Assembly: GCF_000973505.1 (NCBI RefSeq)
Contig: NZ_CP010048.1
Span: forward strand, 30,001 to 62,000
Direction of reading: 5' to 3'
Source of the DNA: Candidatus Saccharimonadota bacterium
GTDB taxonomy: Bacteria > Pseudomonadota > Gammaproteobacteria > Enterobacterales > Enterobacteriaceae
DNA length: 32,000 bases
Both the position numbers and the translations under genes were made by a program. The notes beneath the pieces were generated by a model. That model saw nothing but the letters and a program-made list of their open reading frames with translations, was not told the DNA's origin and did not search any database. Shown here piece after piece: positions 7,971 through 27,493 of this stretch; the first letter of the stretch is position 1; every line of letters starts with the position of its first letter.

Positions 7971-8250
7971 TAATTATCATTATTTTTTTATGTTATATTT
8001 TTGGTAAATTTTTATAGTTTGTGTTTGTATAATATTTTTTAACTTTCAAGAGAAATTATGTTAATACATTAAAATATGTCATATGTTTCGGATCCGGAAT
8101 TGTATTTTTAATATCTTATTATGTTATGATTATAAAATTTTACAAAATCAGAATATTTAGTTTTTTTTGATATATATAATGGTAGTTGTATATATTATTT
8201 ATGTGTTTTGTATTTTATTTTTTGAATTTTTATTGTTTTAATATGTATAT

Positions 8251-8282
8251 TTGTAGTTAAATAAATATTGTAGTTAAATAAA
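8251..8282. repeat. 15-nt direct repeat TTGTAGTTAAATAAA x2 separated by 2 nt
   Basis: Direct reading: copies at 8251-8265 and 8268-8282, in the yjcE-gltP spacer. Confidence 0.6.
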
Positions 8283-8766
8283 ATAGTTTCGAGTGGTCTT
8301 TTTTTATTTAGTAGTTGTTTGATTATATATTAAAATAATATATAAATAGTTCTAGAAAATTTATGATATTTAATATGTTATTATGTATTCAGTAATACTG
8401 AATAATGTTATTTTAATGGTAGAATGTGTTTTATTGATGATATGATAGTGTTTTAGTAATGATTACTTAAATGATATTTCAATCAGTTGGATTTAAATAT
8501 ATTATTTTTTTAGAAATGTGTTATTTGTTAATATAGTGCTATATATTATTTCAAAGTGTATTAATTAAATTAGTTGTTATTTTAGTGTTTTTAAAGTATT
8601 TATATTATAGTTATATTTTAATTAAGATAAAATTTATTATAGTAAGATGATTGTTTAATAATTTAATAATATTTTAAGTCAATAATTGGTATATTTTGAA
8701 ATTTGTATAATATTTATGTGCGGAAGTTGTTACGTTTAAAATAATTAAACTATGGAAGGTATTCTT

Positions 8767-16841: not shown

Positions 16842-17957
16842 GTGATATTAACTAGGTATTTGGTGTATACAATATTAAGATATCAATTGATTATTTTTAT
16901 AGTATTATTTTTAGTATTTTTTTCTCAAAAATCTATTCGGATATTTGGTGCAGTGGCTGATGGTACTATTCCGAAATTTTTGATATGTGTTTTTTTTGGG
17001 TTGAGTTTACCTGAAGTTATTAAGTTAATTTTACCTGTAAGTTTGTTTTTTGGTATTTTGATAACATTTAATTATTTGCATACTAATCATGAAATTATTG
17101 CGATGTATTCTTGTGGTTTGGGGTATACTTTTATTGTAAGGGGGGTATTATTTTTAAGTGTTATAACTACAATTTTTTCTATGATTAATGTTTTGTTTTT
17201 GTCTCCATTATGTTTGTATTATCAAAATAAAATAGTGTTTAAATATCAATTTGATTTTACTTCTATACGGTTATTTGAACGTAAGTTTCATTTTGTGAAA
17301 AATATGAATATGATGTTTTTTATTAATGGTGTTTATGAAAAAAATTTTAAAGATATTTTTTTAATTAGAGTTTTGTCGAATGGACATTCTTCAGTAATGG
17401 TATCTGATTTTGGTTGTATTAAAAAGTTTTTTGATGGTAGTCAATGGTTTGTTTTAGAATTTGGTAATTATTATTGTTGGGATAGAGATATTATTCATTC
17501 GAATTTTTATATGAGTCATTTTGATAAATATAATTTTTTAATTGGCAACCAAGCACATTATTATAGGTGTAGTAATAATTCAGTTGCAGAGTTGTCAATG
17601 TTGCAGTTATGGCGTTCTTCTTCGATAGAAGCTCAAGTAGAATTACATTGGCGTTTAACGTTGGTTATTATTGGTTTTATTATGGTAATGATTATTTTTC
17701 CATTATCATTGATGAAATTGAATCATAGTTATCTATTAATCACATTTCCATCGGTAGTTTTGTATTTAATATTTTTTTTGTTGCAAATATTTTTACGTGC
17801 TAATATTTCTAAAGGTAGTGTTAGTTTGATTTGGATTTGGATTATTAATGTGTTGTATGTGTTTATTGCTGTAATATTAAATTTTTGGGATAGTGCACTT
17901 GTCCGTAATATTCGTTGGAAAGTGAGATTATTTTTTTGTAATTATGACTCGGATTAA
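16842..17957 (+). CDS. lptF: LPS export ABC transporter permease LptF
   Basis: 371-aa ORF with a GTG start. MILTRYLV...GTIP...LPEVIKLILPVSLFFGIL...HEIIAMYSCGL...ELHWRLTLV is colinear with E. coli LptF. Its stop codon overlaps the lptG ATG (TAATG at 17955-17959). Confidence 0.87.
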   Translation: MILTRYLVYTILRYQLIIFIVLFLVFFSQKSIRIFGAVADGTIPKFLICVFFGLSLPEVIKLILPVSLFFGILITFNYLHTNHEIIAMYSCGLGYTFIVRGVLFLSVITTIFSMINVLFLSPLCLYYQNKIVFKYQFDFTSIRLFERKFHFVKNMNMMFFINGVYEKNFKDIFLIRVLSNGHSSVMVSDFGCIKKFFDGSQWFVLEFGNYYCWDRDIIHSNFYMSHFDKYNFLIGNQAHYYRCSNNSVAELSMLQLWRSSSIEAQVELHWRLTLVIIGFIMVMIIFPLSLMKLNHSYLLITFPSVVLYLIFFLLQIFLRANISKGSVSLIWIWIINVLYVFIAVILNFWDSALVRNIRWKVRLFFCNYDSD

Positions 17958-19044
17958 TGTTAATGTATTGTCTTTTAGATCGTTATATTGGTAAGACTGT
18001 TTTTTATAATATGATTATTATATTATTTATACTAATATCATTATCGAGTGTAATAAAATTTGTTGATGAATTGCGTAAAATTGGTCAAGGACATTATGGT
18101 GCTTGGGAAGCATGGTGTTATGTTTGTTTAGATATTTTAAAGGATGTTGAGCGGTTTTTACCAATGGCAGTATTATTAGGTACGTTGTTGGGGTTGGGTA
18201 TATTTTCGACGCGTAATGAATTAATAGTGATGGAAATATTTGGATTTAGTCGTTTACAGATGGTTTCATCATTGATGAAAATTGCATGTCCTGTGATAAT
18301 ATTTGGTTTCATTATTAATGAGTATGGTTCGCCTGTTAGTGAACGTGTAGCACAGGGTTATCGTTATAAAATGATTCATAATGTATCCATACGCTCTGAA
18401 TATAATAATGTATGGATTAAGGATGGATATAATTTTATTCGAATTGAGAAAATTTTTGGAGATCATGTATTATCGGGAATACATATTTATCATTTCGATA
18501 ATAAAAAGTCTTTAAAATCATATCGTTATGTAACATATGCAAAATTTGTTAATAATTCTTGGGATTTGTTAGATGTTTATGAGATCATTTTTAATGATTT
18601 TAGAAAAGTCTTTGAAAAAAGTTATACTAATGGTATATGGGTGACTGTTTTAACTCCTCATTATTTGTCAATAATAATTAAATCTATATATCATTCTACT
18701 GCTTTATCGATATTTGATGTGTATGGTTGTATTCAATATTTCAGAAAAAGTGGTCAAAATATTTCTCAGTATCAGTTATTTTTTTGGAAGAAAGTATTGT
18801 TTCCAATATCTATGATAGTAATGATGTTAGTAGCTTTGTCATGTGTTTTAAGATCATTATTGCATAAATTGCATATTGGTGTTCATATTTTAATTGGCGT
18901 TATTTATAGTTTTTTTTTTATATTTTAAACGAGGTTATTTCTGCGTTGAGTTTGGTATATAGTATAATGCCAATTATTGGTGCTGTATTACCTACTATGG
19001 TGTTTTTAATTTTTAGTATGGTACAACTATATAGATTACGTTAA
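17957..19044 (+). CDS. lptG: LPS export ABC transporter permease LptG, interrupted by a frameshift in a T10 tract. As written, the ORF stops at 18928.
   Basis: LLDRYIGKTVF...FVDELRKIGQG...NELIVMEIFGFSR matches E. coli LptG. The frame from 17957 ends at the TAA at 18926-18928. After the T run at 18910-18919, the frame starting at 18919 reads YILNEVISALSLVYSIMPIIGAVLPTMVFLIFSMVQLYRLR*, with its stop at 19042-19044. That sequence matches the LptG C-terminus (YVLDQIFGPLTLVYGIPPIIGALLP...). Confidence 0.85.
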
Positions 19045-19786: not shown

Positions 19787-20431
19787 ATGATAAAATTGAA
19801 CAATTTATCTATTGGATATTCTGGTCGGAGTATTAAGTTGCCTAGTATTACTGGACAATTTAAACGGGGTAGTATGACTGCTATTCTTGGTACCAATGGT
19901 ATTGGAAAATCGACTTTTTTAAAAACATTAGCTGGTTTTTTGCCTCCAGCTGGTGGAGAATTAAAATTCAATACGTGCAAGATGCCAAGAATTAGTTATT
20001 TACCTCAAAGAATTCGGGTAAATTATCGATTTCCATTGAGTGTTTTTGATGTTGTGGCTATGGGTTGTTGGCCAGTTACTGGATTATTAAAGAAAATTGA
20101 TGAACAGCAAAATAGTGTGATTTTAGAATCTTTACGATGTGTAAAATTAGATCGAATATTACAAAAAGATATATCTGTTTTGTCAGCAGGGCAATTTCAA
20201 TGTATGTTGTTTGCTCGTTTGTTAGTTCAACAATCTTCTTTGATTTTGTTAGATGAGCCGTTTAATAGTATTGATTGTCAGACATGTGATCTGATGTTAT
20301 CTGTTATTGATCAATTACATTATAGAGGATCTACTATTATTATTGTATTACATAATAGTAATATTGTTACTGAGTATTTTTCTGATACTTTGTTATTAAG
20401 TAACAGTGTGCATGTTTGGGAACATATTTAA
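19787..20431 (+). CDS. Metal (Zn/Mn-type) ABC importer ATP-binding protein, ZnuC/MntB-like
   Basis: 214-aa ORF with Walker A GTNGIGKST, Q-loop YLPQ, an altered signature LSAGQFQ, Walker B LILLDEP, D-loop SID and H-loop VLHN. It is paired with an ABC-3 permease downstream. Confidence 0.8.
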   Translation: MIKLNNLSIGYSGRSIKLPSITGQFKRGSMTAILGTNGIGKSTFLKTLAGFLPPAGGELKFNTCKMPRISYLPQRIRVNYRFPLSVFDVVAMGCWPVTGLLKKIDEQQNSVILESLRCVKLDRILQKDISVLSAGQFQCMLFARLLVQQSSLILLDEPFNSIDCQTCDLMLSVIDQLHYRGSTIIIVLHNSNIVTEYFSDTLLLSNSVHVWEHI

Positions 20432-20565
20432 TTTTTTGATTTTTTTATGTATGCCAGCAAGGTGTTGTTATGTGTATTTATTTTTTATAGTTTTTATGTA
20501 GTAGTGTAGTTATATTTATTTTTAGATTACTGGTTATAGCATTGTTTATTGTTTATTGTTAAATT

Positions 20566-21417
20566 ATGTTTGATATATTTGTTTTATTATTTGATCCTTT
20601 TATTTGTCATGGTTTTATGCGTAGAGCACTTGTTGCTTGTTGTGCATTATCTTTAAGTAGTACTCCTATAGGTGTATTTTTGTTATTGCGACACATGACT
20701 TTAATAGGTGATGCATTGTCTCATTCCATTTTACCAGGAGTAGCAATTGGATATTTTTTTTTCGGTGAATCTGTAATTGCTATGGGTTTTGGTGGATTAA
20801 TTTCTGGAGTATTAGTGAGTATATTTTCAGGGTGGATAAGTTTAAAAAATGTTTTGAGAGAAGAAGCTAGTTTTGCTGCTGTATATCTTATGTTTTTATC
20901 TTTTGGTGTTATTTTAGTATCAGTACATGGCTCTAATCTAGATTTATTAGATTTATTATTTGGTTCTGTGTTTTCTATTAATGTTGCCCAGATTCGATTT
21001 ATTGGGATTGTTAGCACTATAACTTTTTTTAGTTTGTCTATTTTTTATCGAGCATTAGTTATTGAAACATTCAATTCAACATTTCTGCAGTGTTGTTCAG
21101 TACAGTATTTTCAATATATTCATATGTTGTTTTTGTTACTGGTTGTATTAAATTTAGTAGCTAGTTTTCAGGTAATTGGTACTTTAATGTCTGTTGGATT
21201 AATGATTTTTCCTTCATTGTCTGTTTGTTATTGGACTTGTAATTTGTTAACAATGTTATGTATGTCGGTATGTATTGCAATATTATCTTCGTTAATAGGT
21301 TTATTAAGCGCGTTTTATATGTTATTACCTCCTGGTCCGGTTATTGTACTATGTAATAGTATCTTTTTTTTGTTATCAATGTTGTTTGGCAGATATAGAC
21401 ATGTAGTTGTATTTTAG
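20566..21417 (+). CDS. ABC-3 family metal importer permease (ZnuB/MntC/TroC-like)
   Basis: 283-aa polytopic ORF. ...LLLRHMTLIGDALSHSILPGVAIGY...PPGPVIVLCNSIFFLLSMLF parallels E. coli ZnuB (...[21 protein letters not shown]...PAGPSVVLCAALLFILSMM). Confidence 0.8.
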   Translation: MFDIFVLLFDPFICHGFMRRALVACCALSLSSTPIGVFLLLRHMTLIGDALSHSILPGVAIGYFFFGESVIAMGFGGLISGVLVSIFSGWISLKNVLREEASFAAVYLMFLSFGVILVSVHGSNLDLLDLLFGSVFSINVAQIRFIGIVSTITFFSLSIFYRALVIETFNSTFLQCCSVQYFQYIHMLFLLLVVLNLVASFQVIGTLMSVGLMIFPSLSVCYWTCNLLTMLCMSVCIAILSSLIGLLSAFYMLLPPGPVIVLCNSIFFLLSMLFGRYRHVVVF

Positions 21418-21612: not shown

Positions 21613-22338
21613 TTAAGTGTTATTTTGATTACCGAGATATATTTGTTGTAAGTATTTATTGTTCAAGATTGCTTTAGGTTTACCTGTAGCGATTATTGTT
21701 CCTTTGTCGAGTATGTAAGCTTTATTGCAAATATTTAGTGTTTCTTGAACGTTATGATCGGTAATTAGTATACCAATACCGTTTTTTTTTAATTGCTTAA
21801 TAATTTTTTTGATGTTATTGATTGCAATTGGATCTATTCCCGAGAATGGTTCGTCAAGTAATATGAATTTTGGATTAACGGTAATTGCTCGTGCAATTTC
21901 CACTCGTCTTCGTTCACCTCCTGATAGCATGTCACCTTTAATATTACTTAAATGCGAAATTTGAAACTCATTCATTATTTTTTTGATGTGTTGATATTTT
22001 TGTGTTTTGTTCATTTTTTTTTGAATTTCTAATACGGCCATTAAATTATTGAAGACTGTTAATTGACGAAATATTGAATTTTCTTGAGGTAAGTAACTCA
22101 TTCCATGTCTTGCTCGTAAATATAGTGGTAATGTGCTAATATTTATTGTATTCAGTAAGATATATCCTGAATCATGTTGAATGATGCCTAATAGTATATA
22201 AAATATGGTACTTTTACCAGCCCCATTAGGCCCTAATAATCCTACTATTTCTCCAGAATTAATTTCTAAAGTGACATTGTGGATTATTTTTTGTTTTTTT
22301 TTTGTTTTTTTTAAATTATATGCAGCTAAAATAGACAT
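21613..22338 (-). CDS. lptB: LPS export ABC transporter ATPase LptB
   Basis: 241-aa ORF with SGEIVGLLGPNGAGKST, SYLPQE, LSGGERRRVEIARA, ILLDEPFSGIDP and ITDHNVQETL. It is colinear with E. coli LptB and lies immediately downstream of lptA. Confidence 0.95.
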   Translation of the reverse strand: MSILAAYNLKKTKKKQKIIHNVTLEINSGEIVGLLGPNGAGKSTIFYILLGIIQHDSGYILLNTINISTLPLYLRARHGMSYLPQENSIFRQLTVFNNLMAVLEIQKKMNKTQKYQHIKKIMNEFQISHLSNIKGDMLSGGERRRVEIARAITVNPKFILLDEPFSGIDPIAINNIKKIIKQLKKNGIGILITDHNVQETLNICNKAYILDKGTIIATGKPKAILNNKYLQQIYLGNQNNT

Positions 22339-22348
22339 TGTTATGTAT

Positions 22349-22921
22349 TTATTTTGTGGTATTGTGTGAAATGTTATTATGTACGTTTTTTTTGCTATGT
22401 ATATTATCGATTGTGATTATTGTTTTAGTACAATCATTGCGTTGATTGCATGTTTCTACATATCTTTTTTTAATAATGTAAATTAAGCAATTGCTTTGTA
22501 ATATGTTGTTATTTGTTTTTAAATAAGCTTGTCCTTGTAATATAACAGTATTTTTTTTTTCATTGTATAATATATATGAAGATGTGATTAATATTTGGTT
22601 TTTGTTATTTTTTGAATAATAAAGAATGCTTGGGTTTCCGTAAGTTGTTATTGTATGTTTTGTTTTTTTTTTATTAATGATAGCTTTATCTGCATAAATA
22701 ATAATATTGTTTTGTTGAATAACTACATTGCCTGTAATAGTTAATATATTTCTTGTTATGTCAATGCTTTGGTGATTAGCATAAATGTGTATTGGTGTTT
22801 CTATATTGTGAGTTTGAATGAGTGCTTGTGTATTTTGTGTGCTGATAAATAATAATACTAGAGTTTGTTTTTTAAATAATGATTTATAATGGTATTTGTT
22901 TTTGTGAATGTTGTGTTTCAT
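22349..22921 (-). CDS. lptA: Periplasmic LPS transport protein LptA (OstA-like fold)
   Basis: 190-aa ORF with an N-terminal hydrophobic signal. PIHIYANHQSIDITRNILTITGNVVIQQNNIIIYADKAII matches E. coli PIHIESDQQSLDMQGNVVTFTGNVIVTQGTIKINADKVVV. The sequence is divergent, but its position upstream of lptB is diagnostic. Confidence 0.8.
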   Translation of the reverse strand: MKHNIHKNKYHYKSLFKKQTLVLLFISTQNTQALIQTHNIETPIHIYANHQSIDITRNILTITGNVVIQQNNIIIYADKAIINKKKTKHTITTYGNPSILYYSKNNKNQILITSSYILYNEKKNTVILQGQAYLKTNNNILQSNCLIYIIKKRYVETCNQRNDCTKTIITIDNIHSKKNVHNNISHNTTK

Positions 22922-23207
22922 GTACTGTTTGTTTGTATTATATCAAACGTTTCTGTAATTGTTCTATGAAAATTACTTTGAGTTTTTTTTATAGCAGTAG
23001 TTTTGAAACATTGTGTATATGCTGATTATTTTATTTTAAATGTGATTTTGTGTGTTGTTAATTGTAATTAATTTATTAAGATTTTTTTGTTGTTGTATTT
23101 TAAATAATTTTGCAGTTTTTGTATGTTTTTTGCGTTGTTATTTTAGTATTATCGTGTTTATGAATGTCACGTTTGATTTTATTTTCTGTTATATTTTTGT
23201 CCATTAT
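22918..23207 (-). pseudogene. lptC: Possible eroded remnant of lptC (fragments in three frames, about half the normal length)
   Basis: The reverse strand directly upstream of lptA has no long ORF. Three successive frames read IQQQKNLNKLITINNTQNHI*, NKIISIYTMFQNYCYKKNSK* and ...TAIKKTQSNFHRTITETFDIIQTNST*. The last stop (TGA at 22920-22918) overlaps the lptA ATG. These loosely parallel E. coli LptC ...RITTDNAQINL..VTLYGTTFNSSGLKM..AELIEKVRTSYEIQNKQ. The similarity was judged by eye and is weak. Confidence 0.35.
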
Positions 23208-23362
23208 AATATAATCAAGTTTTGAATATAATAAATATTAGTGTTTTTTTGTGTTATATAGAATTAACTCATATCAGTATATCATTTATAAAATATATAT
23301 TATAATATATTGTGTGTGTTTTGATTATATGTTTAATATTTTGGAAAATGTAGTTTTTGATT

Positions 23363-26392: not shown

Positions 26393-26975
26393 GTATATTT
26401 TGTTTATGATTTGTGAGTTTGGATTTAGTGTAGTTTAGGTATTTTTTTTACTTAGTATTTGGATCGTAGTGTTTGATCGCATGTATCTTTAATATTCAGG
26501 ATAATCTTTTGGTACTTTTGTTATTGTTAAAAATTTATTAGTATTAGTATCAGTTATGATTAGTAGTTAGTTACGATATCATATCATGTTTATATCATAT
26601 TTGATTTAAATCAAACTGCTGATTATTTTGTTTGTTTGTATTATTTTGGTTAGTGATGAAAATATTTGAATTTTTGAGTATTATGTGTATAGTGTTTGGT
26701 AGTTATTAGCAATAACATCTTAATTTTTAAATTAATTTATTAATAATAGTTGTGTATTTTGGTTAAAGTTATTTAATTCTTTCTGAATATTTGTCCAATT
26801 GTTTTGTGTCATTTTGTTGGTATGTGTTTTTCTGTGGATTTTTTGATTTTTCTGGTATAGATTACTATTTTTTAGCTTTATTGTAAATATTCTTAATATA
26901 TTAATATAAATCCAGCGATTAGTTTAATTAATCCGTATTCATCAGCATATAGTATTTTATTCCGATTTTCCTTTG

Positions 26976-27001
26976 CAAGGTGTATTTACAAGGTGTATTT
27001 A
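26976..27001. repeat. Perfect tandem duplication of the 13-mer CAAGGTGTATTTA
   Basis: Direct reading: copies at 26976-26988 and 26989-27001, in the 1.1-kb degQ-rplM spacer. Confidence 0.6.
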
Positions 27002-27493
27002 CTTTTTAAATAATTTTAGTAAAATTTATATAATTAAGTTTGTGTAATTAAGTATTTTGTGTTTGAAAAATAAATATTTTATTTCTAAAATTAAAAAGAT
27101 TATATACTCGTTATATATCAATAAATTCGTTACAATAAAATAATATCAGTAAACAAATTGATAGATTATATTTTGTGAATTTTTAATTTGTTAATTAAAA
27201 AAATTCGTTGTTTAGTGTTGAAATTTTTTATTGTATTATGTTAACATTACCAATGTGTTAGTTTGTTAAAATTTAGTTTATTAAAATAATGTTATAGATT
27301 TAGTAAAATTAAAATTTTAGATTTAGTTGTTTGCTTGTTGAATGGTTAATGGAGTTTTTGTTGTGGGTGTCTGCTCGTTTTAAAATTCTGTACATGGTTT
27401 ATTAGATTAGATTTTGACAATATTTGAATTAAATTGTGTTTTCTGTGTGTAGTTTTAGTTTAGTGATTTTTAGGGCAGGGGTATTTTTTGTTA

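Follow-up and report, generated by a model that had tools for sequence, protein, structure and literature searches.

Frameshifted but otherwise intact genes are known from the bacterial endosymbionts of insects. The cases described for Blochmannia and Buchnera (Tamas et al. 2008; Wernegreen, Kauppinen & Degnan 2010; Williams & Wernegreen 2010, 2015) share a single 1-nt indel in a poly(A) or poly(T) tract of a gene that is otherwise undamaged, and the bacteria concerned are obligate insect endosymbionts with AT-rich genomes. Experiments have demonstrated slippage, together with conservation across species, in a few B. pennsylvanicus and Buchnera genes. Tamas et al. (2008), as cited by Williams & Wernegreen (2010, PMC3017870), found approximately 30% full-length transcripts from frameshifted Blochmannia and Buchnera genes. 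Bacterial RNA polymerase slips on runs of nine A or nine T (Atkins et al. 2016, PMC5009743). One study by Traverse & Ochman (2017, PMC5574713) placed 151 of 157 transcription insertions in Buchnera within homopolymeric runs, mostly as single-base additions to A or T runs and at a rate that rises exponentially with run length; in the Buchnera transcriptome, zero instances of a transcription error restoring a frame were recorded.

The genome of the Blochmannia endosymbiont of the ant Polyrhachis turneri (B. turneri; CP010048) comprises 749,321 bp with 29.1% GC (Williams & Wernegreen 2015, PeerJ, PMC4389277). Seven of its genes have frameshifts in homopolymer tracts and were annotated as intact since polymerase slippage may correct them, with the status of pseudogene being kept for genes with multiple nonsense mutations, frameshifts or gaps. 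Flagged frameshifts were checked by hand by the depositors, and the one in lptG was kept. In the paper itself, lptG appears within the gene-order table and not in the text; we take it to be one of the seven frameshifted genes because the depositors filed a corrected 360-aa protein (AKC59633.1). The lptG frameshift, its corrected reading and the slippage mechanism have, therefore, been on record since the 2015 genome, and the frameshift is both real and ordinary for this group. Our analysis adds that the tract is lineage-specific with T11 as the probable ancestral state, that the downstream coding sequence exhibits no excess decay, that no recoding signal accompanies the tract and that lptC is absent.

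Compared with the frameshifted genes described previously, the lptG tract differs in being a sense-strand poly(T), which corresponds to U10 in the mRNA, and in being lineage-specific rather than ancient; in addition, slippage has been shown experimentally for some of those genes while B. turneri lptG is known from sequence. Programmed transcriptional realignment and −1 frameshifting, as found in dnaX and in IS elements, are similar in that a slippery run of at least 9 A or T, or an X_XXZ_ZZN motif, opens a second frame. In contrast to those systems, lptG has no conserved signal, stimulatory structure or second functional product, and a shift would mend a mutation rather than expand the coding capacity. 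The protein itself has counterparts in the LptG subunits of the LptB2FG extractor of E. coli, Shigella, Klebsiella and Enterobacter (PDB 6mhu, 6s8g, 5l75, 6mit), with which it shares aligned residues 5-357 of 360 and an adjacent lptF gene. It differs from other LptG proteins in being only 38-47% identical, in being interrupted by a frameshift and in being encoded in a genome without lptC.

RESULTS

The stretch of B. turneri DNA analyzed here (the window) extends over 32,000 nucleotides. An intact lptF gene (16842-17957, + strand) matches the LptF profile TIGR04407 over positions 1-347 of 347 with 233.7 bits (cut-off 230), and its stop codon shares one base with the first possible lptG start, ATG 17957, in the sequence TAATG; the depositors use ATG 17963. 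The two genes are co-oriented and adjoin one another in the identical order in four other Blochmannia. From ATG 17957, the original lptG frame runs for 323 codons on the + strand (17957-18928), encodes transmembrane (TM) segments 1-5 and the periplasmic domain, and ends with ...IGVIYSFFFIF* at a premature TAA (18926-18928, + strand). This stop lies two codons past a T10 homopolymer on the sense strand of lptG (18910-18919, + strand), which is the site of the frameshift. The remainder of the gene is found in the −1 frame (18919-19044, + strand), where 41 codons with the translation YILNEVISALSLVYSIMPIIGAVLPTMVFLIFSMVQLYRLR precede a stop at 19042-19044; this part carries the last TM segment (TM6), and its C-terminal peptide region includes SLVYSIMPIIGAVLPTMVF. 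Hence, lptG is not a single uninterrupted reading frame in the genome. A T11 tract yields one ORF of 362 codons and a T8 tract one of 361 codons, and the predicted junction peptide of the frame-corrected protein is ...VIYSFFFYILNEVISALSLVYSIMPIIGAVLPTMVFLIFSMVQLYR. The lesion is located at 88% of the length of the gene and is the only disabling one, so that the multiple lesions or lost homology of an eroded pseudogene are not seen. The first-pass annotation had placed the tract, the premature end, the continuation in the frame from 18919 and the two restoring tract lengths in the same way, and reading of the sequence and the ORF list agrees with it on each of these points.

Matches to the LptG profile (NCBIfam TIGR04408; the family is PF03739 in Pfam) confirm the identity of both pieces. 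The 323-aa piece matches positions 1-312 of the 351 positions of TIGR04408 (297.9 bits), and the 41-aa piece alone matches positions 312-350 (39 positions; 28.2 bits, E = 7e-7). Because these two matches abut, the pieces are exactly colinear. Once joined, they match this NCBIfam equivalog in one stretch over positions 1-350 of 351 with 337.8 bits, as compared to a cut-off of 240. The joined protein also aligns with a solved chain, 6s8g_G (360 residues), over residues 5-357 (E = 2e-89), and the 41-aa piece falls on residues 320-357 of this chain; the earlier proposal that the second frame is colinear with the conserved C terminus of LptG is, thus, confirmed by profile and structure alike. Hydropathy peaks of the joined protein at about 9-39, 64-85, 100-121, 274-305, 305-325 and 326-359 reproduce the LptG layout of three N-terminal and three C-terminal TM segments around a periplasmic domain, of which the genomic ORF has the first five only. 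As judged by hydropathy, the T10 tract falls where the fifth hydrophobic segment ends and the sixth is entirely in the downstream frame, as the first-pass annotation had envisaged for the last TM segment.

There is no excess decay in the downstream coding sequence. All of the positions that are invariant among nine homologues (Y320, P337, P344, F348 and S352) are kept within the 41 downstream residues, and identity to the homologues is 34-54% in this part as compared to 38-46% in the 315 residues upstream. With both pieces open and colinear, the gene is free of stops, frameshifts and excess divergence apart from the one lesion. When segments of this 32-kb sequence are taken off-frame or from intergenic DNA, only ~2% of them provide 41 codons without a stop. 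The B. turneri protein is 38-40% identical to other Blochmannia LptG proteins and at most 47% identical to anything else, and by this measure LptG is fast-evolving in B. turneri.

The origin of the tract was assessed by comparing the site in lptG DNA from four Blochmannia (those from Camponotus sp. and C. nipponensis, B. vicinus and B. ocreatus) and in four outgroup sequences, including Budvicia, Erwinia haradaeae and Providencia, from a genome scan. In these relatives, the site encodes G-F-L/F/T-F-Y-I/V-L-N by codons that follow GGN TTT TTA/TTG TTY TAY or resemble it, for example GGA TTT TTA TTC TAT. Other bases thus break up the T's, and the longest uninterrupted stretch is T8, in B. vicinus. 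The B. turneri site reads AGT TTT TTT TTT (T)AT. As no gap is needed to align the T11 version with the homologues, we infer that T11 was the ancestral in-frame state and that the present tract is due to a one-base deletion; the T8 alternative would cost one residue. This comparison shows the tract to be specific to the B. turneri lineage, with T11 as its probable ancestral in-frame length, and dates the frameshift, on the taxa aligned, to a time after B. turneri had diverged from the Camponotus-associated clade. A conserved two-frame signal is not present, as the gene occupies one ORF in the outgroups and in each of the four other Blochmannia. On the branch to B. turneri, a Gly-to-Ser change (GGN to AGT) and a Leu-to-Phe change (TTA to TTT) joined short stretches of T to form an 11-base poly(T) within TM segment 5, from which replication slippage probably then dropped one T. 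In the resulting T10 genome, the original frame stops two codons on and the last TM segment is left in the −1 frame.

An alignment of orthologs from sister strains had been suggested as a check on the tract. The four other Blochmannia compared are more distant and lack the tract altogether, and a sister strain was not found. In the protein collection, the genome scan and the metagenome scan, protein identity did not exceed 47% for any relative detected. A tract-spanning pattern with a variable gap of 6-14 bases had no match in metagenome contigs, and hence neither length variants nor sister strains were detected there. A profile scan of genome contigs with five aligned Blochmannia LptG sequences recovered Budvicia, Providencia, Erwinia haradaeae and uncultured Gammaproteobacteria only, and no Blochmannia. 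The 338-aa LptG of B. vicinus (CP097753.1; L019:546-1617) was considered as a further truncation and rejected, as its length reflects an annotated start codon that lies further downstream, and the complete ORF (MYNILNHYIRK...) can be read in that frame without interruption. Separately, lptG of the Blochmannia from Camponotus sp. (CP097755.1; L017:601-1674) contains an in-frame A11 at gene position 542; long slippery lptG tracts arise independently in other lineages.

The first-pass annotation had described the neighboring LPS export genes as intact. This is correct for lptF, for lptB (21613-22338, − strand; TIGR04406, 337 bits) and for lptA (22349-22921, − strand), which is divergent and scores 74.9 bits against TIGR03002 (cut-off 71.7). 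The absence of lptC, however, had been missed. In other Blochmannia and in E. coli, this gene lies upstream of lptA; in B. turneri, the 435 AT-rich bases between lptA and yrbA (22922-23356) have no ORF of more than 34 codons on the lptA strand, and lptC is blank for B. turneri in Table S3 of PMC4389277. The Lpt machine of B. turneri has, therefore, already been altered. The B. turneri gene table contains lptD, lptE, msbA, lpxA/B/C/D/H/K, kdsB, waaA, rfaC/F and hldD (PMC4389277), and some twenty further genes for making and exporting LPS have been kept in total.

Long homopolymers are not unusual in this DNA. The window contains 6 runs of T10 or A10 as compared to 8.3 expected from shuffled sequences, and hence there is no over-representation of such tracts. 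All 15 runs of at least 9 bases lie inside genes (including lptB, lptA, valS and rplM), and the lptG run alone is not in frame. On the sense strand, lptB has one in-frame A10 and two A9 runs, and lptA has two in-frame A10 runs. If slippage is appreciable at 10-base runs, then a share of the lptB and lptA transcripts must be out of frame. Of 38 homopolymers of at least 8 bases, 37 are T on the + strand, such that − strand genes carry poly(A) and + strand genes poly(T). Strand asymmetry is very pronounced, the GC skew being between +0.13 and +0.45 in every 2-kb segment across positions 1-32000.

Two public records of the same DNA treat lptG differently. The 323-aa ORF represents a 90%-identity protein cluster with two named members, WP_158332950.1 and AKC59633.1, and a gene called from the Logan assembly is identical to the truncated product as well. 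The GenBank record, AKC59633.1, is a corrected LptG of 360 aa that reads ...YSFFFYILNEV... across the tract (VIYSFFFYILNEVISALSLVY) and is identical to the T11 reconstruction, while the RefSeq record, WP_158332950.1, is a truncated product of 321 aa that starts two codons downstream of ATG 17957 and is called LptG without a pseudogene flag.

The gene order in the window agrees with that in Table S3 of PMC4389277, in which valS, pepA, lptF and lptG are followed by tRNA-Leu, BTURN675_039, BTURN675_040, lptB, lptA, yrbA, murA and degQ. BTURN675_039 and BTURN675_040, which have no gene names in that paper, follow tRNA-Leu at 19787-21417 and match the zinc ABC transporter proteins AztA (167.7 bits) and AztB (207.7 bits), respectively; as these scores are below the curated cut-offs, the two genes are best described as divergent metal ABC transporter subunits. 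Two intervals have no ORF of at least 100 codons. One is a 1.1-kb stretch between degQ and rplM (26393-27487), which is the place of yhcB/yhcM in other Blochmannia according to Table S3 (PMC4389277) and may hold gene remnants; the other is a 0.8-kb stretch between a yjcE-like and a gltP-like gene (7971-8751).

DISCUSSION

The interpretation of lptG in the first-pass annotation, namely, a frameshift within a homopolymer of an otherwise conserved gene, is supported by our analysis. One of the explanations offered there, an error of assembly or sequencing, is now unlikely. The genome was sequenced on an Illumina GAIIx with 150-bp paired ends and assembled with Velvet; finishing to the majority genotype with Mosaik/Consed was followed by BWA, GATK IndelRealigner and VarScan at a mean coverage of 1223x, with ten positions being corrected (PMC4389277). 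The Logan assembly of SRR1660458 (a 22-kb contig), which was produced by a different assembler but probably from the depositors' own reads and hence does not constitute independent data, is identical to the window across the 6,972 bases compared, T10 included. Because the finishing combined this depth with indel realignment and a second assembler also gives T10, we consider the T10 consensus to be well supported and an assembly error to be unlikely. It is also improbable that T10 represents a consensus artefact or a mixture of genotypes within the host. Homopolymers in AT-rich symbiont genomes raise the frequency of short-read indel errors, the sample was pooled (PMC4389277), and two genotypes were once seen within one colony for B. 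vafer. However, the majority of reads determined the finished base, the depositors retained this frameshift on manual inspection, and the protein cluster of lptG contains no full-length T11-derived ORF from Logan. A systematic undercall by one base is also hard to reconcile with the five remaining 10-base tracts of the window, which all keep their frame.

Our preferred reading, to which we assign a probability of roughly 0.55, is that B. turneri continues to produce full-length LptG by way of slippage and that this slippage is mainly transcriptional. We consider this the most likely outcome because lptG is otherwise undamaged and B. turneri has kept the rest of its LPS pathway. RNA polymerase would stutter on the A10 template and add an extra U to a fraction of the lptG transcripts; these corrected transcripts would encode the full LptG of 362 aa (360 aa from the depositors' start) while most transcripts would yield the truncated product with five TM segments. 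The lesion resembles those of slippage-rescued genes in that it is a single indel within a poly(T) of at least ~9 bases and one added T restores the frame. Rescue by slippage had been offered as one explanation in the first-pass annotation with reference to Blochmannia and Buchnera genes, and the authors of the genome had proposed the same rescue (PMC4389277). A ribosomal −1 slip on U_UUU_UUU would give an identical LptG and may contribute. In the original frame, the mRNA reads AGU UUU UUU UUU AUA, and U_UUU_UUU fits the X_XXZ_ZZN motif (PMC4066793); both tRNA-Phe would re-pair perfectly one base back and continue with UAU AUU UUA, such that the product, SFFFYILNEV..., is the same as that of T11. 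There is only a slim chance, however, that full-length LptG comes chiefly from ribosomal frameshifting instead of from slippage by RNA polymerase. The 91 nt downstream of the tract fold no better than shuffled sequences (z = −0.67) and hence provide no stimulatory RNA structure, none of GGAG, AGGA or GAGG, as Shine-Dalgarno-like elements, occurs in the 20 nt 5' of the tract, the motif is missing from all of the relatives compared and is thus not a conserved recoding signal, and transcriptional slippage is well established for tracts of 9-10 A or T. A split gene, in which re-initiation at an in-frame TTG (18946) or at ATG 18967 produces a separate last helix of 32 aa or 25 aa that assembles with the five-TM fragment, would be extremely improbable. 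The TTG lies 18 nt after the stop and has a GAGG (18931-18934) 11 nt upstream, but this GAGG is part of the conserved N-E-V codons, is one of 35 on the same strand of the window and belongs to a class of Shine-Dalgarno 4-mers found in only about 5 of 24 genes here, and so is not a meaningful signal. The resulting peptide would be without the conserved YILN motif, and there is no precedent for such an arrangement in this group.

Plain recent inactivation, with no meaningful amount of full-length protein and the lesion as the first step of erosion, or a tolerated truncated LptG with five TM segments, is possible although rather unlikely. Judged from sequence alone, slippage rescue and recent inactivation both fit, as intact downstream coding is equally expected of a very recent lesion. 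The lesion is a single one in a known indel hotspot, and in these symbionts gene degradation has been described as starting with homopolymer indels. Frameshifts near 3' ends, such as this one, are those most often tolerated and can persist in Blochmannia (PMC3622351). The prior loss of lptC from the genome and the fast evolution of LptG would also be compatible with a gene on its way out. Against inactivation, the 41 downstream codons have remained free of stops, for which the chance expectation is 2%, the invariant residues are all kept, and identity in this part equals that of the upstream part. The segment that would be lost is an entire TM helix of a six-TM permease. Furthermore, the Lpt pathway genes would be purposeless if the LptB2FG extractor were without LptG, and about twenty other LPS genes are nevertheless retained.

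There is, in addition, a small probability, which we mention as speculation, that T10 is held by selection as a cheap attenuator that sets LptG, and hence LPS export, at a low level, or that the last helix is supplied by re-initiation at TTG 18946. Either of these, if true, would represent functional recoding or gene fission in an essential envelope machine that is also without LptC.

Returning to slippage rescue as the favored reading, the lptG case illustrates that annotation pipelines diverge in their treatment of frameshifted genes; otherwise, the frameshift by itself matters little. If slippage rescue were demonstrated in lptG, then an essential envelope gene and a case of sense-strand poly(U) would join the short list of genes that have been tested. 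Together, the frameshift in lptG and the absence of lptC are a hint that B. turneri may export its LPS in a degraded mode, which could be of some interest to those who study the Lpt machine or the reduction of the envelope in endosymbionts.
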